A stretch of 64,000 nucleotides of DNA from an uncultured Gammaproteobacteria bacterium (lineage in GTDB: Bacteria; Patescibacteriota; Microgenomatia; CAZETR01; Amesbacteraceae). Below are positions 1,695-63,277 of the stretch, one piece after another. The position numbers were made by a program, and so were the translations under genes. The stretch is from contig CAZFGX010000001.1 of the NCBI GenBank assembly GCA_964518565.1, forward strand, positions 588,470 through 652,469, written 5' to 3'. How positions within the stretch are numbered: the stretch's first letter is position 1; the number at the start of each line of letters is the position of its first letter. Under the pieces are notes generated by a model. That model made no database searches. It was given only the letters and a program-made list of their open reading frames with translations, and was not told the DNA's origin.

Positions 1695-2444
1695 GTGTCA
1701 GAAACTGCTTTCACACCTCAAATTGAGGCCATAGGACTCGAACCAAATTTACAAATATTACCCATCACTGTTTTACGTGAAGGACACATTCCCGATTCTC
1801 GAATAAAAGTAGCCAAAGACTTACGACACGATTTGAAATATATTCTTTTACCCAGAAACGGATTAGAGCAAACCCAAGTTCACCAAACAATCGATTTAGA
1901 AGTACAAGCAATAAATCTAGGAAATTATCTAGACATGCCAGTGGTTGCCCAAGCACAAGAAGTATCAAAAGATGGCATTTCATATATCGCACAAACATAT
2001 ATTGAAGACGCAATTGAACTCGGTCCAGAAACAAAATTAAGTGAACAATCAGTAAAATACAATGAACAACAAACGGCATTAGCAAAGGGAGCCTTGTATC
2101 AAGCAATATTAGATTTAGGTGCGGACAACAATCAGTATTTAATTGACCCAAAAACTCAAAAAATTTATCTGAGCGATATTACACTGCCAAACAATTTCGA
2201 TACGAATATTGACACGTATCAAACACCAAAATACTTTTTACAAAAAGAGCATCCTTTATACAAAGAGCAAATAGGTGGCCTCACCACAGCCGCTTTTTTT
2301 GAAACGTTAGAAAAATTAGATAATTTAGAACCAGTCGATATTCAATGGGCATTCGAAGACAATATACAAGTAGCAGAAAAGTTTACTCAAAGAATCAAAA
2401 ATACAGCAAAGATATTTCGAGACTTAGCTCATTCAACTTTTTAG
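1695..2444 (+). CDS. hypothetical protein
   Basis: 249 aa ORF, no recognised motif. Confidence 0.45.
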   Translation: MSETAFTPQIEAIGLEPNLQILPITVLREGHIPDSRIKVAKDLRHDLKYILLPRNGLEQTQVHQTIDLEVQAINLGNYLDMPVVAQAQEVSKDGISYIAQTYIEDAIELGPETKLSEQSVKYNEQQTALAKGALYQAILDLGADNNQYLIDPKTQKIYLSDITLPNNFDTNIDTYQTPKYFLQKEHPLYKEQIGGLTTAAFFETLEKLDNLEPVDIQWAFEDNIQVAEKFTQRIKNTAKIFRDLAHSTF

Positions 2445-3314
2445 CCAGGCACTAAACTCTTCCCCAATCTCCGGATGTTTCTTGGCCATTTTTACCACCG
2501 TCTGTAAATAAGACATTGGTGTTCCAGAATCCATATATTCCGCATTCTTCAGTTCCACACCAACTACACGTTTACCATCTGCAATCATTAGCTTTACCAC
2601 ATCGTTCCAATACAGTTCAGTCCCTGCTGCAGTTTCCTTTACCGCACTATCTACATAATCAAAAATATTAGGCGTAAAAATAAATGGCGAAATTGTAGCC
2701 AGATCAGAAGGTGCCTTATCTTTACCAGGTTTTTCAATCATATTTTTGACATCAATTGCTCCATCCTCTACTTCGACGCCACCAACAAAACCAAACCGCT
2801 TATAATCTTCATCTTTTGTCGCTTTTACACAACCCAGACAACTTGAATCATATTTGTGATATGCAGCTATCAATTGTTGAAAAGCATTTGGCTCAGACAA
2901 GAAAAACTCATCACTCCAGCAATATACAAATGGTTCATCTCCCACTAAATGCCGGACATTTAATAACGGTGTTCCATTGCCATATGGACCCTTTTGGCGG
3001 ACATACACAAAATTTGCCATGTCTGAAATCCGTTCTATTTTTTCCAACAATGGTTTCTTCTTTTCACCACCCATTTTCAAATTCTCCACCAAATCACCAT
3101 GTGGTCGGTCAAAATGATCTTCAATTGCGCGTTCGTGGTAGTTTGTGACGATAATAATGTCTTCGACGCCTGCATCAACCAATTGCTCTACTACATATTG
3201 AATAACCGGCTTATCTACAATTGGTAACATTTGCTTTGGCATCGCTTTAGATACCGGCAAAAACCGGGTAGCAAATCCAGCAGCTGGAATGACGGCTTTT
3301 CGTACTTTCTGCAT
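2433..3314 (-). CDS. galU: UTP-glucose-1-phosphate uridylyltransferase
   Basis: 293 aa; N-terminal AVIPAAGFATRFLP nucleotidyltransferase motif; whole-length GalU-like. Confidence 0.82.
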   Translation of the reverse strand: MQKVRKAVIPAAGFATRFLPVSKAMPKQMLPIVDKPVIQYVVEQLVDAGVEDIIIVTNYHERAIEDHFDRPHGDLVENLKMGGEKKKPLLEKIERISDMANFVYVRQKGPYGNGTPLLNVRHLVGDEPFVYCWSDEFFLSEPNAFQQLIAAYHKYDSSCLGCVKATKDEDYKRFGFVGGVEVEDGAIDVKNMIEKPGKDKAPSDLATISPFIFTPNIFDYVDSAVKETAAGTELYWNDVVKLMIADGKRVVGVELKNAEYMDSGTPMSYLQTVVKMAKKHPEIGEEFSAWLKS

Positions 3315-28669: not shown

Positions 28670-29752
28670 TTATCTTAACCCACCTGTCACCCGTACTCGT
28701 TTCAAAAGTTCTGGATCATCCAATACTTTTCCACATCCGCGCACCACACATGTCAACGGATCTTCAGAAATATATACCGGCATTCGCGTCTCTTCCGACA
28801 TGAGCTTATCGATTCCAGGAATCAATGCTCCTCCTCCTGCCATCATTATCCCCCGCTCCAAAATATCTGAAACCAATTCTGGTGGAGTTTCTTCCACCAA
28901 ATCTGCTACTGACGATACGATTTCGTTTAGTGTTGGCAGCATCGCCTCCCGAGCTTCATCAGAAGTAATCTTTATCGACTTTGGCAAACCAGATTCCACA
29001 TCTCGTCCTCGCACCACCATATATCGTAGTGCTGGCCGAAGAACTCCTTTTTCATCTACTGCTGTAAATGCCTCAATATGGGCATTTCCTATAGAAGTTT
29101 TTACTTCTTCAGCCGTTCGCTCTCCCAACAATAAGTTATATTTGAGTCTCATGTAATGAATGATCGAATCATCCAGCTCGTCCCCAGCCAATCGCACAGA
29201 TTTATTTACCACCACTCCACCCAATGAAATCACCGCCATCTCAGATGTGCCCCCGCCAATATCGACTATCAATGATCCACCAGGTCCATCAATCGGCAAT
29301 CCTGCCCCAATAGCTGCTGCCATCGGCTCTTCTATCAAATATGCGCTCCTTGCTCCGGCTGAAAGTGCCGCTTCTTGTACCGCGCGCCGTTCCACTTCGG
29401 TAACCCCAGATGGAATACCTATCACGACTCGCGGCTTAGGTACGCGGGGAATCAATTTTCCACTCTCATGCACCTGCAAAATATAATGTTTGAGCATCGC
29501 TTCTGTCGCATCAAAATCTGCAATCACCCCATCTTTTAATGGTCTAATCGCCTCAATCGTTGCCGGTGTCCGACCCAACATTTTTTTCGCCTCTTCACCT
29601 ATTGCCACCACTTGCTTGGTCTTACGATGTCTGGCCACCACCGACGGCTCACGAATCAAAATTCCCTTGCCCTTAACATGAACCAAAGTATTAGCCGTTC
29701 CCAAATCAATGCCTACATCATAGGATAACAAGCCGAAAAAATAGTCCAGCAT
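28670..29752 (-). CDS. mreB: rod shape-determining protein MreB
   Basis: 360 aa; GIDLGTANTLV actin-fold motif, full-length MreB. Confidence 0.9.
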   Translation of the reverse strand: MLDYFFGLLSYDVGIDLGTANTLVHVKGKGILIREPSVVARHRKTKQVVAIGEEAKKMLGRTPATIEAIRPLKDGVIADFDATEAMLKHYILQVHESGKLIPRVPKPRVVIGIPSGVTEVERRAVQEAALSAGARSAYLIEEPMAAAIGAGLPIDGPGGSLIVDIGGGTSEMAVISLGGVVVNKSVRLAGDELDDSIIHYMRLKYNLLLGERTAEEVKTSIGNAHIEAFTAVDEKGVLRPALRYMVVRGRDVESGLPKSIKITSDEAREAMLPTLNEIVSSVADLVEETPPELVSDILERGIMMAGGGALIPGIDKLMSEETRMPVYISEDPLTCVVRGCGKVLDDPELLKRVRVTGGLR

Positions 29753-29792
29753 ACAGCCGGACTATACGATGTCTCGTTCACCTTATCAAGGC

Positions 29793-29848
29793 AAAAAAAA
29801 TACCCCCGAAAGCGTTTCCACTTCCAGGGGTAAACAAATTGATAACTA
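29793..29848 (-). terminator. 56-nt repeat copy 1: hairpin plus U-run (minus-strand intrinsic terminator / 3' UTR)
   Basis: near-identical to 30795-30850; the hairpin closes with two G-U wobbles only when transcribed from the minus strand; followed by UAUUUUUUU. Confidence 0.55.
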
Positions 29849-29864: not shown

Positions 29865-30269
29865 TCAGATCATGTCCGGTGATGAATTTGGATCGGTCAT
29901 ATCGTGAACCATTAAATACAATCCTGCCCCCAACAGACCAGAAACCACAGCCACCAAAATCACACCAGTAGAATTCATATCCGGGAAACTGTGAAAATAA
30001 CCATAACTCTTTATCCATGGAACACAGAAGGTCATGATTTTTGTTTCCACAAAAGCCACAATACTCACACCACCAACCATTGGGAAAAAATGTTGGCCAG
30101 ATGTACCACGCGTACCACTGTATGTTTGAAATATCCACGTCATCAACAATCGCCACAAAAGTGAAAGCACTGCTGGCACAATAACCACACTCCCCAGCAT
30201 CAACACCGATACGATTATGATCATAATCTTACGCGTAAAAATTGGTGAATCGAAAGATATTCCTACCAT
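29865..30269 (-). CDS. small polytopic membrane protein
   Basis: 134 aa, 4 TM. Confidence 0.45.
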   Translation of the reverse strand: MVGISFDSPIFTRKIMIIIVSVLMLGSVVIVPAVLSLLWRLLMTWIFQTYSGTRGTSGQHFFPMVGGVSIVAFVETKIMTFCVPWIKSYGYFHSFPDMNSTGVILVAVVSGLLGAGLYLMVHDMTDPNSSPDMI

Positions 30270-30355: not shown

Positions 30356-30748
30356 TTAAGAAACTGAATTTGAATTATGCATAAATGCAAAAGTCGGAAT
30401 ATAGAAAATCGCCGTAACAACAAGCATCATTGATACTGAATTTTGCGTCACTACCATACGAGATTCTGAATATTGATTCACCCATTCCACCCCAAAAACA
30501 TACAAAGTTGCTTCTAAGGCTAATACGGCAAACAAACCCATCACCCCAGCAAAGGCCAACTGCATGGTCGATAAAATCGTCAGTTTAGCCGCCAGCCAAA
30601 CCGCCAATTTTTTCCACCAATATCCAAAGACTATTGGTACAACAATCATTGAAGTACCCAACAAAATCGGGGCAACCAAAAGTAGCAATTGCATAAATCC
30701 TCCCAAACACTCTTTTTTAGTTATCAATATCAAAGTACAAACACTCAA
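30356..30748 (-). CDS. small polytopic membrane protein
   Basis: 130 aa, 4 TM. Confidence 0.45.
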   Translation of the reverse strand: MSVCTLILITKKECLGGFMQLLLLVAPILLGTSMIVVPIVFGYWWKKLAVWLAAKLTILSTMQLAFAGVMGLFAVLALEATLYVFGVEWVNQYSESRMVVTQNSVSMMLVVTAIFYIPTFAFMHNSNSVS

Positions 30749-30794
30749 AACAGCCGCATATAGGCTTAGTAAATGTTTATAGGCCTATTATATC

Positions 30795-30850
30795 AAAAAA
30801 ATACCCCCGAAAGCGTTTTCCACTTCCAGGGGTAAACAAATTGATAACTA
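30795..30850 (-). terminator. 56-nt repeat copy 2: hairpin plus U-run
   Basis: 56/57 identity to copy 1; directly after the stop of the 30857..31171 gene. Confidence 0.55.
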
Positions 30851-50733: not shown

Positions 50734-50805
50734 ATTTTGGTAAAATGACTTCATCTAGGGGTGTCGTTCAACGGCAGCCCCGCAGCTGCGGGGTCCAAAA
50801 CCAAA

Positions 50806-51060
50806 ATGTATTACGTCTACATTTTAAAAAGCGAACATGACGGAAATATATATACAGGTTACTCGTCTGACTTAAAACGTAGAATCCAAGAACACCAATC
50901 TGGAAAAGTAGACTCAACAAAAAACCGCTTACCTATAAAATTAATATATTACGAAGCATATCTGAGCGAAACAGATGCTAGGAATAGAGAACAGTATTTA
51001 AAAAATGGTGGAAATGCCAAAAACACGTTAAAATCACAAATACAAAACTCTTTAAAATAA
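50806..51060 (+). CDS. GIY-YIG nuclease family protein (YhbQ/UPF0213-like)
   Basis: 84 aa from MYYVYILKS; GNIYTGYS..L.RR..EH motif. Confidence 0.68.
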   Translation: MYYVYILKSEHDGNIYTGYSSDLKRRIQEHQSGKVDSTKNRLPIKLIYYEAYLSETDARNREQYLKNGGNAKNTLKSQIQNSLK

Positions 51061-51072
51061 ACTGTTCATCGC

Positions 51073-51144
51073 AGGGCCGTGATGTCAATGGTAGCATGGG
51101 GGTCTCCAAAACCTCTCGTCCAAGTTCGAATCTTGGCGGCCCTG
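51073..51144 (+). tRNA. tRNA-Trp (anticodon CCA)
   Basis: hand fold: acceptor AGGGCCG/CGGCCCT, anticodon loop CTCCAAA, T-loop TTCGAAT, discriminator G. Confidence 0.85.
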
Positions 51145-51221
51145 CATTGAACAATTACAAAAATTCGCAGTCTCCAATCCCGCCGCTGCGGGACGATTCC
51201 TTCCACCCCTGCCAAATCACA

Positions 51222-52223
51222 CTATTTTGCAAAACCTCCAAAATAGCTTGTCAGATCGTCAAAATTTTCCGCAAAATACTCCAAGCTATCTACATGAGGT
51301 TTTATAAATATATCTGGACGACAATTTTGTTTTAAATAATGCTCTGATTCTATCCACAGGCTCTGAATCTTTTTATAAAAATAAACCTGCCAACCCATTT
51401 CTATCTCAGATTGAGACAAGGGATATTCAGACTGATACGTCGTCATAAACGCCTCGATATTGCCCATATCTTTCTCAGTCGGAACTCCTTCGACACACAT
51501 ATAATCCATAGATCTAATCACTTCATAAATCCTATGTCTCACTCCAGTCTTTTCAAAATCAAACACATGACTCACATTATTATTACCATCAAAAAATACA
51601 TTTCCATCATGAAAATCTCCATGAATTTGGTGAGAGGGATTTAAATCAAAATTTGTATGATCTGGAATAGACTTTTCTACAAATCGTAGCTTGAGTTCCA
51701 GCCCGCGCAGTGCAATCCGATCAAAGTCATCCGATTCAGATTTAGATAAAATACTCTCTCTAATATTCTCTGCTTTATGTATAAATTCTGCCGTATCCCA
51801 GGTTTCTATTTCTCCATCAGCACCAAAAGGCAATTCACTCCCCAATCTATGGATCTTCGCCAGCATTTTTGCCATCGATTTAAAATGAACTACCTCCAAA
51901 TCTCTTCTACTTATCTGTATCGCATCAACAAACGGAAAAAGTGCATACACTCCACCTTCAAAAGAAAAAAAAGTACCGTCTTTTCCTATCATGGGCAAAA
52001 TTACCGGCACACCACCTTGAGAAAAAAATTTCTTTACCCGATGGACTTGGGCTACTTGTTCAGAGTCTTCAAATCGATATCTCTTCAAAAAATATTTCTG
52101 CTGCCGATTAGCCAAAATATAATTTTTACTCAGTACCCCTTTTTGCACCTCAGAAACAACCCTCAGATCATCACGTAAATCGAAATTACTTTTTATATAC
52201 GCCAATAAATCATCCACCGCCAA
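51222..52223 (-). CDS. phosphotransferase-family kinase (APH/choline-kinase fold)
   Basis: 333 aa; HGDFHDGNVFFD catalytic motif and downstream D..FE. Confidence 0.62.
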   Translation of the reverse strand: MAVDDLLAYIKSNFDLRDDLRVVSEVQKGVLSKNYILANRQQKYFLKRYRFEDSEQVAQVHRVKKFFSQGGVPVILPMIGKDGTFFSFEGGVYALFPFVDAIQISRRDLEVVHFKSMAKMLAKIHRLGSELPFGADGEIETWDTAEFIHKAENIRESILSKSESDDFDRIALRGLELKLRFVEKSIPDHTNFDLNPSHQIHGDFHDGNVFFDGNNNVSHVFDFEKTGVRHRIYEVIRSMDYMCVEGVPTEKDMGNIEAFMTTYQSEYPLSQSEIEMGWQVYFYKKIQSLWIESEHYLKQNCRPDIFIKPHVDSLEYFAENFDDLTSYFGGFAK

Positions 52224-52268
52224 ATATTATCAAACCTCGAGATGAAATCAATCAAGTTTTGTCAAAAG
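52222..52268. repeat. 47-bp direct repeat copy A
   Basis: 43/47 identical to 53008-53054; spans the last codons of the VOC-ASCH gene and the leader of the kinase gene. Confidence 0.6.
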
Positions 52269-53009
52269 TATTTTTATCCCCACCACTCCACACTTCTTTT
52301 CCTCTTCTTCAGAATAAAACTTCCGTATTTGTTCCAACAACTGTATTTTTGTAGTTCCTCCAAACCAACCCGGGTCAAAATCTGAAAACAATAATTCAAA
52401 ACTTGGATAGCGCAATAGACCGACAACGTGAGCAGTAACCGACTCCATCAGATCTGGATTCTTTTTAAATACAATTTTGTCCCCTATCTGTATCTGTTGG
52501 CGCTTCTCGTCATATAGCCGCGATTCAATAATTTTTTTCCCAGACCTGATCGCCTCAAAAGGCTCAGGTTGAAGTTTCATTTCATAAACAATAGATTTTT
52601 CAAACTGATAGTGCGGCGATTCAGGCATGATCTGAACCAACTCTATTTTGTTTCCTTCTGGATCAAACAAGTATGCAGCCAAATTTTTATCTTTCATATT
52701 CATGATTTCGGAGTCAAAAACTACCCCCCTACTCTCCAAATCAACTTTCGTTTTCGCTATATCCTCTACCGTAAAAGCAATATGTCTTAATCCGATACTC
52801 TCTTTGTCGTCAAACACTAGACGTTTGTTTCCACCCAAACACAATTCCAAATACTGCCCCTGAGAAATATGTACATACACAATCCGCAAAGATCCGTCAT
52901 CATTAAAAATTTTAAACGCTTCTGCAAACCCCAATCCCTTCACATAAAACCGCAACATGGTATCTATATCCTTGACCCGAATTGCATTATGCCCAAATCG
53001 CATAATCAA
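52248..53009 (-). CDS. VOC (glyoxalase/bleomycin-resistance fold) - ASCH domain fusion protein
   Basis: 253 aa; N-terminal HNAIRVKDID...GLGF VOC pattern; C-terminal ...EAIRSGKKIIESRLYDEKRQQIQIGDKIVF ASCH-like. Confidence 0.55.
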   Translation of the reverse strand: MIMRFGHNAIRVKDIDTMLRFYVKGLGFAEAFKIFNDDGSLRIVYVHISQGQYLELCLGGNKRLVFDDKESIGLRHIAFTVEDIAKTKVDLESRGVVFDSEIMNMKDKNLAAYLFDPEGNKIELVQIMPESPHYQFEKSIVYEMKLQPEPFEAIRSGKKIIESRLYDEKRQQIQIGDKIVFKKNPDLMESVTAHVVGLLRYPSFELLFSDFDPGWFGGTTKIQLLEQIRKFYSEEEEKKCGVVGIKILLTKLD

Positions 53010-53054
53010 ATATTACCAAACCTAGAGATGAAATCAATCAAGCTTTGTTAAAAA
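53008..53054. repeat. 47-bp direct repeat copy B
   Basis: immediately 5' of the VOC-ASCH start; contains TTGATT...TGGTAATAT promoter-like elements on the minus strand. Confidence 0.6.
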
Positions 53055-53199
53055 ATTTCACCACAACTAATTCTGAATTTGCATAAATAATAACCAACTA
53101 CTATAGGTTTAATTATGCTGGTTTTTTTGATATAATCTACACAGCAAAACATTCTGTTTTGAGCACATTCAAATCGAGAAGGCATAAGGAGCAGGAGTT

Positions 53200-54093
53200 A
53201 TGAAAATCGATCCAAAAAATGGCAGTATTACACGCCTGACAAACGGTCATCATTTAGTTCGAATTGTAGGTAAAACGCACCTGGCTAACTTGCCGGGCAT
53301 TGTATGTAAAAACCCACAAGCACCCGAAGCAAAACGCATCTATGAAAAACGTTTTACACAAAAACGCATCTATCTCCCTTTTGAGGCAGATATAGCACGA
53401 GAGAGCATACTGGGACGTACACGCGAAGATTCAATCGTGTTGGGCATGACCGGTTACTCAAGTATCAAACCCGAAGACTGTGCCGCCTGGGGAATTCAAC
53501 CAGAAGCATATGAAGCAGCTTGCCAAGAAGTGTTGGCAAACATGGTTCTAGCAATTCGTACGGAATATCCCCGAGTCAATATTGCAATCGCCGATGGTGC
53601 ATCAGATCTCGGTGTAGACCAAGCGGTCATTGGTGTCTCCAGACATTTAAACCTCCCCCATCTCGGACACTCGTGTCCAAACTACATGATGTATGTCAAA
53701 GATGACCACGATACTGTCTTGGTTTCAAACACTCAAGACGAATATTCAGATGAATTTATCCGCAGTTTAGATATTCTCTGTTCTGTCGGAGGCAGACTTC
53801 AAGCACTATTACACGACATCAAGGCCGCAATTCTGTTCAACAAAAAGGTTTTGTTGTTTGATCTTGTCAGAACAATTTCTATCAATCGTGGCGGTCCAGC
53901 AGCCCGGGGTGCAGATGGCGGCGTACACGATGCCACATCTGCATTTTTAGCAGCAATCAGACTATTCCAAGGCGAAAATCAAACTCAATCATATGAAGCA
54001 ATGCGTGACTGGGTCAGAGACCAGACCGTTAAAGTCACTCGACCACTGGTCTCTCCTCAAAGCGCCTTCTCAAAATGGCAACGCGATCTCTAA
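53200..54093 (+). CDS. hypothetical protein
   Basis: 297 aa; TTTGATATAAT -10 and AAGGAG SD upstream. Confidence 0.45.
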   Translation: MKIDPKNGSITRLTNGHHLVRIVGKTHLANLPGIVCKNPQAPEAKRIYEKRFTQKRIYLPFEADIARESILGRTREDSIVLGMTGYSSIKPEDCAAWGIQPEAYEAACQEVLANMVLAIRTEYPRVNIAIADGASDLGVDQAVIGVSRHLNLPHLGHSCPNYMMYVKDDHDTVLVSNTQDEYSDEFIRSLDILCSVGGRLQALLHDIKAAILFNKKVLLFDLVRTISINRGGPAARGADGGVHDATSAFLAAIRLFQGENQTQSYEAMRDWVRDQTVKVTRPLVSPQSAFSKWQRDL

Positions 54094-62371: not shown

Positions 62372-63277
62372 ATGGCACGTCTGCCCGCGATGCTACTAGT
62401 AGGGACTTCATTCATCGCTGCCACCTCCACCGCATTTGCCGCCACAGACCATCTAGTTATATCTGAAATTCAAACACGTAGCGTAGCCAACGCTGACGAT
62501 GAATTCGTCGAGCTATACAATCCCACTTCAAGTCCTGTAGTCATTGACGGGCTTCGTCTACGTTTAGGCGCCAGTTCAAACCTTATCGATTCAATGAACG
62601 GCACAATTCCTGCTCATGGATTTTATTTAGTCAGCAAACCTGGTGCAAATCTACCTATAGCTTCCGATGCCACATATTCAGCTTCTTCTTCAGCTATTAC
62701 CAGCAGTAGCACCATCACCTTACTCGACACAGATCATGCCACCATCATCGATAGAGTAGGGCTAGGTACTGCCACACTATTTGAAACTGCATCAGCTGCT
62801 ACGCCATCGGCAGGAGGAAGTATTGAGCGCAAAGCCAAATCCACATCTACACCTACATCTATGCAAAGTGGAGGAGTAGACGAATTCGAAGGCAATGGGG
62901 AAGACACCGACAACAATGCCTCAGATTTTAATATCCGAGATATTTCAAATCCCCAAAACGCTACTTCCACAATAGAACCAACCGTGGCCATTCCGACACC
63001 TACAGCTACGCCTACATCAACCCCAATCCCAACACCAACTTCTACACCCACACCAACTATGACTCCGGCGCCCACAGCTACGCCTACACCCACAACGACT
63101 CCCATACCAACAATAGCTCCCACCATGACGCCCACAGCCACACCCACACCACCAGCTCCACCTAGCACATTTTTCCCCAAGCCCATTCTCAAATGCACAG
63201 TTACCTATATACCTCACGAAATGTTTGGCACTACAATTTATTTCCCCAGACTTCATTGTGAAGTCGTCAGGCTGTAG
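62372..63277 (+). CDS. secreted lamin-tail-domain (LTD) protein with Thr/Pro linker
   Basis: signal peptide; LVISEIQTRSVANADDEFVELYNPT LTD motif; PTPTATPTSTPIPTPTSTP linker. Confidence 0.6.
   Translation: MARLPAMLLVGTSFIAATSTAFAATDHLVISEIQTRSVANADDEFVELYNPTSSPVVIDGLRLRLGASSNLIDSMNGTIPAHGFYLVSKPGANLPIASDATYSASSSAITSSSTITLLDTDHATIIDRVGLGTATLFETASAATPSAGGSIERKAKSTSTPTSMQSGGVDEFEGNGEDTDNNASDFNIRDISNPQNATSTIEPTVAIPTPTATPTSTPIPTPTSTPTPTMTPAPTATPTPTTTPIPTIAPTMTPTATPTPPAPPSTFFPKPILKCTVTYIPHEMFGTTIYFPRLHCEVVRL

Follow-up and report, generated by a model that had tools for sequence, protein, structure and literature searches.

Two consecutive genes on the minus strand of an uncultivated Patescibacteria genome of about 1.0 Mb, one encoding a VOC-ASCH fusion protein and the other an APH-fold kinase, are each preceded by nearly the same 47 nucleotides. 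The first-pass annotation took the fusion gene to be a single-gene cassette, inserted or duplicated by recombination and bracketed by the repeats. We asked whether the locus carries the marks of such an element, and if not, what the shared sequence is and how it came to stand in front of two different genes. The window, meaning the whole stretch of DNA that was analyzed, is 64 kb (64,000 nucleotides) long.

A 47-nt direct repeat ahead of two unrelated genes

A repeat search of the window recovered two 47-nt copies in direct orientation, with a start-to-start spacing of 786 nt. They agree at 43 of 47 positions (91.5% identity), as the first-pass annotation had reported from positions one nucleotide away. 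The four mismatches fall at 52263, 52257, 52238 and 52230 (copy A numbering), and the longest unbroken identity, 18 nt, spans the −35 region. The features of the locus are as follows.

51222–52217, minus strand: APH-fold kinase gene, 331 aa, GTG start at 52217
52218–52247, minus strand: 30-nt gap from the VOC-ASCH stop to the kinase start, within or next to copy A
52221–52267, minus strand: repeat copy A, minus-strand reading TTTTGACAAAACTTGATTGATTTCATCTCGAGGTTTGATAATATTTG
52232–52224, minus strand: extended −10 element of copy A, TGATAATAT
52255–52250 and 52251–52246, minus strand: TTGATT, −35 candidates of copy A
52248–53003, minus strand: VOC-ASCH fusion gene, 756 nt, 251 aa, ATG start at 53003
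roughly 52248–52586, minus strand: ASCH domain, residues 140–251
roughly 52587–53003, minus strand: VOC domain, residues 1–139
53007–53053, minus strand: repeat copy B, minus-strand reading TTTTAACAAAGCTTGATTGATTTCATCTCTAGGTTTGGTAATATTTG
53018–53010, minus strand: extended −10 element of copy B, TGGTAATAT, then ATT, then ATG 53003
53041–53036 and 53037–53032, minus strand: TTGATT, overlapping −35 candidates of copy B

The likeness is well beyond chance. The best 47-mer matches in shuffled windows reached only 26–29 of 47 positions, and none of 100 shuffles gave a second match with three or fewer mismatches. An ungapped scan of both strands of the 64-kb window revealed no third copy above shuffle level; the third-best match, at 28/47, is background. 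The edges of the repeat are sharp, the flanks on either side being dissimilar (Smith-Waterman against shuffles, p = 0.19–0.88). Homology past the 47 nt, hinted at by a GTGGTG upstream of both copies, was rejected when the local alignment proved not significant. The locus sequence is 100% identical in contigs assembled from two sequencing runs, which excludes a one-off assembly artefact.

Both copies stand in register with a start codon. Copy B, inside the 196-nt divergent intergenic region between the VOC-ASCH gene and a 297-aa gene, ends 3 nt ahead of ATG 53003; copy A ends 3 nt ahead of GTG 52217, adjoining the kinase gene. Copy A also holds the stop codon of the fusion gene (TGA, 52248–52250) and its tail codons L-L-T-K-L-D (the last five to six), in agreement with the first-pass annotation. 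Its description of a bracketed gene stands as to geometry but not as to length, since the gene measures 756 nt from its ATG rather than 762 nt from a TTG. It was right to distrust the TTG starts of the open reading frame track: the gene caller and homologue N-termini agree on ATG 53003 (MRFGH) and on GTG 52217 (M-x-D/E-LL).

The domain assignments made at first sight (VOC, ASCH and APH) were confirmed by Pfam. The N-terminal part of the fusion matches Glyoxalase (PF00903, E = 2e-15), and its metal ligands H5, E53, H74 and E121 (H/E/H/E) are invariant in 20 orthologues; it is predicted to belong to the VOC (glyoxalase/bleomycin-resistance/dioxygenase) superfamily, whose members are built of paired beta-alpha-beta-beta-beta modules. 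The C-terminal part matches ASCH (PF04266, E = 7e-9; PDB 2z0t, E = 3e-13). Its octapeptide GKKIIESR fits G-K-x-x-x-E-x-R, a pattern in which Lys and Glu serve as the catalytic residues of ac4C amidohydrolases (bioRxiv 10.64898/2026.02.27.708502), and we classify it as a GKER-type ASCH domain and putative enzyme. The kinase (PF01636, E = 7e-22) has an FLK lysine, an HGDFHDGN catalytic loop and a DFE motif, with K47, H201-G-D203...N208 and D222-F-E224 invariant among homologues, and is a predicted APH/choline-kinase-fold phosphotransferase. It has a single PDB match (2ppq, E = 3e-5). The VOC-ASCH architecture is a singleton, unique to this genome. The two copies thus precede unrelated genes, with no similarity once the repeat ends.

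The pairing had also been likened to antibiotic or small-molecule detoxification loci, a suggestion that the family comparisons do not bear out: both proteins fall well below the NCBIfam equivalog cut-offs, and PADLOC found no defence system at the locus. No curated cut-off was reached for glyoxalase I, FosA or bleomycin-resistance proteins by VOC-ASCH (46.5 bits where the YaeR-like family requires 140, 43 against 120 for glyox_I, and 18–25 against 180–250 for Fos families), nor for aminoglycoside or macrolide resistance kinases, homoserine kinase II, SrkA or CotS by the kinase, which matched no resistance family and scored at best 67.6 bits against 271 (homoserine kinase). A defence-system or phage origin was set aside as well, the PHROG matches being to generic ASCH and VOC families. 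The divergent 297-aa neighbor had no match in Pfam, NCBIfam or the PDB, and its homologues are all uncharacterized.

Promoter-like elements and a probable leaderless layout

In both copies the element TG(G/A)TAATAT lies 6 nt upstream of the start codon. Each copy ends TAATAT-TTG, with the start codon 3 nt further on, so that the kinase GTG, like the ATG of the fusion gene, follows 6 nt after TAATAT. TTGATT precedes TAATAT by 16 nt, or GATAAT by 18 nt. Both copies therefore combine an extended −10 (TGn) with a −35-like hexamer at 16–18 nt, and the promoter-like elements that the first-pass annotation pointed out in copy B are present in the repeat. The part of the repeat upstream of TTGATT is A/T-rich. 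As motifs the hexamers are weak (4 of 6 positions agree in each case, TAATAT being compared with TATAAT and TTGATT with TTGACA), and a generic promoter scan of the region returned 10 sites against 9.6 in shuffles. Because that scan shows no excess, the promoter reading rests on position, not motif strength. Searches of the repeat for RNA structure, a riboswitch, attC or a terminator found none (fold z-scores −0.57 to +0.64 against shuffles), and an Rfam scan of the locus matched only the nearby tRNA.

The position of the −10 element recurs across the window. A −10 box lies 5–8 nt before the start codon in 20 of the 69 window genes, with a peak at 6 nt: the counts of −10-like hexamers at 5, 6, 7 and 8 nt are 2, 10, 4 and 4, against 0–1 at most other offsets. 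Under relaxed criteria, 9 of 28 such boxes have the TG extension. Fourteen other genes have a Shine-Dalgarno-like motif, and no gene has both. The loci of VOC orthologues in relatives (L002, L092 and others) have the layout of the window, TGnTAnAnT-6 nt-ATG. Transcription units of this genome typically appear to open with a leaderless gene, GGAGG being confined to operon-internal genes.

In both copies the −10 sits where promoters of the window most often have it, and the repeat is therefore most probably a whole promoter, one that gives leaderless mRNAs. It was previously described as a 5′ leader that the two genes share; it lies instead upstream of the transcription start that we infer, and the genes are probably leaderless. 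Transcription from each copy would begin at, or about 1 base from, ATG 53003 (VOC-ASCH) and GTG 52217 (kinase). Genome-wide mapping has identified leaderless transcription units in Mycobacterium tuberculosis and Streptomyces (work cited within PMC12641261). Like those units, the layout described here keeps the −10 at a constant, short spacing from ATG or GTG, lacks a Shine-Dalgarno sequence and would have transcription start at the start codon. It differs from them in that they were mapped, whereas these are deduced from sequence position in an uncultivated genome.

The kinase gene is not preceded by a Shine-Dalgarno sequence. The 30-nt gap before it is free of terminators, and transcription begun at the upstream promoter is therefore expected to run on into the kinase gene. 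Lacking a Shine-Dalgarno sequence, the kinase would need a precisely placed promoter of its own for both transcription and translation, and one 47-bp copy could provide the two starts in a single step. A leaderless GTG is less usual than a leaderless ATG, and this counts against a leaderless kinase mRNA.

Origin of the two copies

A gene bracketed by direct repeats is the same arrangement as two consecutive, co-oriented genes that each have the same promoter. The geometry therefore does not tell an inserted cassette from a copied stretch of 47 bp. That the copies are related by a duplication or recombination event, as was first proposed, is supported. We consider it reasonably probable that the repeat is one sigma-70-type promoter present in two copies, giving two leaderless mRNAs, and that about 47 bp were copied locally between the fronts of the two genes (promoter reuse or capture), in either direction.

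The 3′ end of the fusion gene fits this account. ASCH homologues end ...GIKVRLL* or ...GIKVKLL*, whereas the window protein ends ...GIKILLTKLD*. As the homologues stop before TKLD, the extra tail is read from the promoter sequence of copy A. The kinase-side copy would have been set over the 3′-terminal part of the ASCH frame, which was thereby extended by four codons (TKLD), up to a stop inside the promoter. A fossil ASCH tail in copy B was considered too, the matching frame there reading FLTKLD*, and rejected because a stop codon lies directly upstream in that frame. A point on the other side is that neither substitution in the coding stretch of copy A changes an amino acid (TTG/TTA and AAA/AAG); this could be a sign of an older duplicate held under constraint, but two out of two is not significant.

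The alternative closest to the first-pass annotation is that a circular or foreign fragment with VOC-ASCH and one promoter joined the kinase promoter by cassette insertion or excision between promoter modules, in the manner of the PeSL (promoter-early/stem-loop) cassettes of T4-type phages (Arbiol et al., 2010; PMC2839356). A further exchange between the copies could then remove the gene or free a 786-bp circle. The repeats do enclose exactly one gene, of an architecture found in this genome alone, and the phages provide a precedent. The region also appears plastic: in the nearest related locus (L092) the same gene families occur in a different order and orientation, the VOC gene stands alone and the repeat is absent. 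The window contains a second pair of this form, a module of about 57 nt (terminator/−35) at 29792–29848 and 30794–30850, some 22 kb from the promoter repeat, which encloses about 1 kb.

Against these points, there are only two copies in 64 kb, with no stem-loop and, by Pfam calls, no integrase, transposase or recombinase in the 10 kb to each side. Inverted repeats are absent from both ends of the 786-bp unit. The repeat core had no match in GTDB representative genomes (a set without the source genome), JGI metagenomes, IMG/VR or the plasmids of PLSDB. The GC content of the locus, 36–38% against 42.7 ± 3.5%, is only 1–1.8 SD low and is not clearly foreign. Searches for identical copies of the kinase, VOC-ASCH and 297-aa proteins returned contigs that were all 100% identical to the window; the cassette-free configuration called for by the first-pass annotation was not among them, nor was an empty-site or deletion variant. 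With the nearest kinase homologue just 45% identical, the comparison of alleles was confined to these contigs. An unbroken identity of 18 nt is short for RecA-dependent exchange. Cassette insertion is unproven, and we regard it as unlikely, with promoter duplication (promoter reuse) preferred.

Recognized elements were considered in turn. An IS, MITE or transposon was rejected for want of terminal inverted repeats and, within 10 kb, of a transposase; where such elements have a short target-site duplication, the direct repeat here is 47 nt. A tRNA-Trp (51073–51145) adjoins the locus, but an island linked to it was discarded, there being no repeat of the tRNA 3′ end, no integrase within 10 kb and a GC content only 1–1.8 SD low. 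Integron gene cassettes resemble the locus in being single genes bounded by repeated sites. Unlike it, they are promoterless, with a folded attC end and IntI nearby; here the repeat has no attC-like fold and is itself promoter-like, and no integrase was found within 10 kb on either side.

Less probable than cassette insertion is a shared operator: selection or gene conversion would hold the two promoters to one sequence because a single regulator binds both, with VOC-ASCH and the kinase as its small regulon. Identity would then reflect function, not recency; being compatible with an origin by duplication, this is a partial alternative. It would account for the nearly complete conservation of the −35 to −10 spacer, with one substitution, and for the 18 identical bases running across the −35 region, and the VOC, kinase and 297-aa families are neighbors again in L092. 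The repeat, on the other hand, shows no convincing dyad symmetry or hairpin, Pfam calls identified no regulator gene adjoining the locus, and the upstream regions of VOC orthologues (12 loci) have the −10 box and its spacing in common and nothing more. That all four substitutions should spare the core elements has, by our estimate, a chance of about 1 in 5.

Nearby direct repeats most often arise by tandem duplication, and tandem arrays of paralogues occur elsewhere in the window. A relic of a larger tandem duplication, of gene plus promoter with the second gene later replaced or deleted, is nevertheless improbable: similarity stops at both ends of the 47 nt, the genes behind the copies are unrelated, and two precise events would be needed where one suffices. 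Chance similarity or an assembly artefact can be dismissed, given the shuffles and the two sequencing runs.

Probable promoter reuse in a Patescibacteria genome

Reuse of promoters before non-homologous genes has been described in work on putative mobile promoters, for the most part in pairs whose mean identity is 92% (survey by Matus-Garcia, Nijveen and van Passel, 2012; commentary, PMC3575422). The survey covered the region from −150 to −50 and sequences of at least 50 nt and at least 80% identity. The present pair is like these putative mobile promoters in placing similar upstream sequence (91.5%) before non-homologous genes of one genome, and in being attributable neither to a known IS nor to a known RNA family. 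It is unlike them in its length of 47 nt and its position at about −50 to −4, and so fails the survey's length and position filter, not its concept; the genes being probably leaderless, the repeat extends right to the start codon. Its two copies, moreover, stand before genes that lie side by side, and one copy overlaps the 3′ end of the upstream gene. With PeSL cassettes it shares a module that runs from the upstream stop codon through an A/T-rich stretch, a −35 and a −10 to the next start codon and that flanks a single small gene in a plastic region, where recombination would delete the gene or make a circle. In contrast to PeSL, it has no stem-loop/terminator or Shine-Dalgarno sequence, no circles or shuffling were seen, and the host is a cellular Patescibacteria genome, not a phage; many copies in hyperplastic regions characterize PeSL, against two in 64 kb here.

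Judged by its sequence, the repeat pair is probably a clean instance of known promoter reuse in a small candidate-phyla-radiation genome, with no evidence of a mobile cassette, and the locus reveals neither a new type of mobile element nor a resistance locus. The analysis corrects two start codons and draws attention to a unique VOC-ASCH fusion, set in a neighborhood (VOC, ASCH and APH kinase, with NUDIX in relatives) that recurs in Patescibacteria; there, the corresponding genes lie among NUDIX, HIT, HAD, Ham1 and methyltransferase genes.

The second pair of regulatory modules in the window suggests that a wider recombination process could operate. It is a long shot, though conceivable, that short regulatory modules such as the 47-bp promoter and the ~57-nt module are recombination substrates by which single small genes are inserted, deleted or swapped in variable accessory-enzyme islands of Patescibacteria. 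If so, module swapping would be a cellular counterpart of the mini-circle shuffling of PeSL in T4-type phages, and any open reading frame dropped behind the 47-bp promoter would be expressed at once, without a ribosome-binding site, because the promoter puts the transcription start on the start codon.

Under promoter reuse, the reading we favor, a single 47-bp copy may supply the start of both transcription and translation in a streamlined genome dependent on leaderless mRNAs, with a side effect on the gene upstream: VOC-ASCH would thereby have gained a new four-residue C-terminal tail.

The repeat pair and its two genes

Two neighbouring minus-strand genes, encoding a VOC-ASCH fusion and an APH-fold kinase, are each preceded by one copy of a 47-nt direct repeat.

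52221-52267, minus strand: repeat copy A, before the kinase gene
53007-53053, minus strand: repeat copy B, before the VOC-ASCH gene
52248-53003, minus strand: VOC-ASCH gene, ATG at 53003
51222-52217, minus strand: kinase gene (PF01636), GTG at 52217
53200-54093, plus strand: gene for a 297-aa protein, divergent from VOC-ASCH; its counterpart in L092, a locus of a relative, lies at 2109-3005
50761-51060, plus strand: stand-alone GIY-YIG protein (84-99 aa), adjoining tRNA-Trp and the kinase
51073-51145: tRNA-Trp, adjoining the locus

A repeat finder gave 43/47 identical positions for the two copies, which lie 786 nt apart. A second match to the 47-mer with ≤3 mismatches occurred in 0 of 100 shuffles of the window. 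An exhaustive scan of both strands, without gaps, gave 28/47 for the third-best match (shuffled-window maxima 26-29). The similarity is far above chance expectation. The edges are sharp: gapped alignment of the flanks revealed no homology beyond the 47 nt, nor did Smith-Waterman comparison with shuffles for 40, 80 or 150 nt on each side (p = 0.19-0.88). The locus is 100% identical to the window in contigs from two sequencing runs. The repeat pair described in the first-pass annotation therefore exists, by repeat finder, shuffles, scan and identical contigs, although its coordinates were off by 1 nt.

On the minus strand the repeat reads TTTT(G/A)ACAAA(A/G)CTTGATTGATTTCATCTC(G/T)AGGTTTG(A/G)TAATATTTG. 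Copy B is followed by ATT ATG CGA TTT GGG..., the start of VOC-ASCH (protein MRFGH), and copy A by GCG GTG GAT GAT TTA..., the start of the kinase ((M)DDLLAYIK). The gene caller of the public collection chose identical starts (251 aa and 331 aa, respectively). All VOC orthologues begin MRFGH or MKFGH, and the N-termini of kinase homologues, M-x-(D/E)-LL, line up with the GTG. TTG starts, which the same annotation had already doubted, are therefore rejected. Its promoter-like elements are present in both copies: TG(G/A)TAATAT ends 6 nt upstream of the start codon, and a pair of overlapping TTGATT hexamers precedes the candidate -10 hexamers by 16-18 nt, each hexamer matching the consensus at only 4/6 positions.

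Between tRNA-Trp and the kinase stop codon lies a G+C-rich stretch (51165-51215) with a CCCGC...GCGGG hairpin. An inverted repeat in the tRNA flanks (51060-51156) adds about 9 bp per side to the acceptor stem (AACTGTTCA / TGAACAATT).

A candidate leaderless promoter

We counted -10-like hexamers by their distance to the start codon in the 60 nt upstream of the 69 long ORFs of the window. Under a strict definition, 20/69 genes carry one 5-8 nt before the start codon (2, 10, 4 and 4 genes at 5, 6, 7 and 8 nt), with a peak at 6 nt and 0-1 genes at most other offsets. A relaxed definition fits 28 genes, 9 of them with a TG extension. SD-like motifs (GGAG/GAGG/AGGA) occur in 14 other, mostly operon-internal genes, and no gene has both motifs. 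The predicted leaderless layout is thus pervasive across these ORFs. Its modal architecture is TGnTAnAAT, 6 nt, ATG, and both repeat copies supply exactly that. The same layout precedes VOC orthologues in relatives, reading TGGTATAAT-AAACTT-ATG at locus L002, TGATATAGT-CTATTT-ATG at L092, and with the -10, 6 nt and ATG likewise shared by further orthologues. The 297-aa protein gene differs from its neighbours: it carries a TATAAT some 60 nt upstream and a conventional SD (AAGGAGCAGGAG).

The kinase lacks an SD, its start lies only 30 nt past the VOC-ASCH stop, and no terminator was found between the two. A separate promoter copy for each gene is the natural reading, and the position of both copies points to leaderless transcription. 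Each copy would drive the gene behind it and start its transcript on the start codon; if copy A were missing, the kinase would be left as an internal cistron lacking an SD.

The 3' end of VOC-ASCH falls within copy A, with the codons for LLTKLD and the stop codon (52250-52248). In the window the protein terminates in ...GIKILLTKLD*, but its nearest ASCH homologues stop at ...GIKVRLL* (P0113) and ...GIKVKLL* (P0114). The last four residues therefore lie outside the ASCH domain; they come from a reading frame that continues into the promoter copy up to the TGA inside TTGATTGA. Such a tail is consistent with a 47-bp sequence that either landed on the ASCH frame's end or evolved there. In the matching frame copy B encodes FLTKLD*, with both substitutions in that stretch synonymous. 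Copy B as a fossil coding end was rejected, given a stop codon directly upstream in frame and no further homology. We favour, with moderate confidence, a local duplication of a leaderless promoter. It would have equipped the kinase, or else VOC-ASCH, to start transcription and translation on its own, and left the ASCH end reading four codons into copy A.

Probable promoter reuse, the cassette reading and a second module

The closest concept for the pair is promoter reuse, an already known phenomenon that it fits. More than 4,000 families of 'putative mobile promoters', highly similar upstream sequences before unrelated genes, are on record, chiefly as pairs, with a mean identity of 92% and an unknown mechanism (PMC3575422). 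The present pair would have slipped through that survey on account of its length (47 nt), its position (-50 to -4) and its overlap with a coding end. The promoter-early/stem-loop (PeSL) modules of T4-type phages (PMC2839356) likewise run from an upstream stop codon through an A/T-rich stretch and promoter to the next start codon, and involve single small genes; what sets them apart from the present repeat is an SD, a stem-loop terminator and a copy number in the dozens.

VOC-ASCH had also been read as a single-gene cassette, inserted or duplicated by recombination. The bracketing stands and such an insertion may have occurred, but two consecutive genes that each carry the same promoter look no different. 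The repeat folds no better than shuffles (z -0.57 to +0.64), its borders lack inverted repeats, and no integrase, transposase or recombinase appears among the Pfam calls of any gene up to 10 kb away on each side. Every contig that carries the gene for the kinase, VOC-ASCH or the 297-aa protein has the identical arrangement, with no empty site among them. The repeat matched no Rfam family, and its core had no match in GTDB representative genomes, JGI metagenomes, IMG/VR or PLSDB. No repeated 3' end of tRNA-Trp was found downstream, and no evidence was found that links the GIY-YIG protein to the repeat. At 36.3% and 38.5%, the GC content of the two genes is lower than the window mean (42.7%) by 1-1.8 SD, which is not decisive. 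An integron cassette (no fold, no integrase within 10 kb each side) and an IS or MITE (no border inverted repeats, no transposase in the same range) were rejected.

The window holds a second two-copy module, its copies 1002 nt apart and near-identical save for 1-nt differences in homopolymer length.

29792-29848, minus strand: copy 1
30794-30850, minus strand: copy 2

It consists of an intrinsic terminator (CCCCUGGAAG, loop, CUUUCGGGGG, U run; 10-bp stem) followed by TTGATA, which in copy 1 is the -35 of an mreB-like gene (28670-29752; TTGATA, 17 nt, TATAGT, 8 nt, ATG). The module flanks two small membrane-protein ORFs (29865-30269 and 30356-30748), whose neighbours are paralogues only 27-29% identical, which argues that it is much younger, or more homogenised, than the surrounding genes. 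Two cases in 64 kb might suggest general recombination at regulatory modules, which we consider improbable. Elsewhere, the 3' end of an ORF at 62372-63277 carries tandem Pro/Thr-rich coding repeats (62992-63111, period 12-36 nt).

The fusion, its relatives and possible functions

Among 5.8 billion clustered proteins, both domains occurred together only in the window's own protein. Next came stand-alone VOC proteins of 140 aa (≤80% identity; Woesebacteria and further Patescibacteria) and a handful of ASCH proteins (best 65%). When 1.84 billion representatives were searched in full with HMMER, the top 150 matches contained no second VOC-ASCH protein. The fusion appears unique among the proteins searched. 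At the junction (...SPHYQFEKS-IVY-EMKLQPEPFE...) the VOC C-terminus sits almost directly on the ASCH N-terminus, as would be expected if two adjoining genes had lost the stop codon and spacer that separated them. A 44-nt direct repeat inside the VOC domain (52757-52800 and 52964-53007, 70% identity) matches the starts of both beta-alpha-beta-beta-beta modules (GHNAIRVKDI, LRHIAFTVEDI); it may reflect the ancient duplication of the modules or be a chance match.

Twelve VOC orthologue loci were compared. A related kinase or ASCH lies within 4-6 kb of the VOC gene at L092 alone, the closest relative found. There, a 4.5-kb stretch encodes a stand-alone VOC (74% identical), the 297-aa protein (66%) and a kinase homologue's C-terminal end (46%), but their order and orientation differ and the repeat is absent. 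The neighbourhood is therefore old but rearranged, and the fusion and promoter pair appear specific to the window's lineage. MAGs at L005, L008, L012, L013 and L014 (GTDB representatives) have VOC orthologues 60-71% identical to the window's Patescibacteria-type protein; their titles, 'uncultured Gammaproteobacteria' or 'Pseudomonadales', may be mislabelled, or the bins contaminated.

All three domains look catalytically intact. The VOC metal ligands H5/E53/H74/E121 are invariant in 20 orthologues, and the kinase has K47, HGDFHDGN and DFE. The ASCH domain is of a DUF3850-like subfamily (GKxxxExR) with the octapeptide GKKIIESR; in ASCH ac4C amidohydrolases the octapeptide Lys and Glu form the catalytic dyad (bioRxiv 10.64898/2026.02.27.708502; see also PMC6972931). 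No specific assignment held, and the proposal of an antibiotic or small-molecule detoxification locus found no support: all NCBIfam matches fell far under their cut-offs, among them glyoxalase I (43 vs 120), Fos families (18-25 vs 180-250) and homoserine kinase (68 vs 271), and no defence-system match was found. PDB relatives are uncharacterised or generic. The 297-aa protein has about 28 homologues (37-66% identical) and no match in Pfam, NCBIfam, PADLOC, PHROG or PDB. Elsewhere, kinase relatives adjoin or are fused to NUDIX, ASCH relatives are fused to NUDIX, and VOC relatives are surrounded by HIT, Ham1, NUDIX, HAD and methyltransferase genes; multi-domain ASCH partners are NUDIX, GNAT, HD, HEPN-AbiU2, peptidase S51, NYN and GDSL. 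Our best guess is that VOC-ASCH and the kinase serve in house-cleaning or salvage of metabolites or nucleotide derivatives, rather than in antibiotic resistance.
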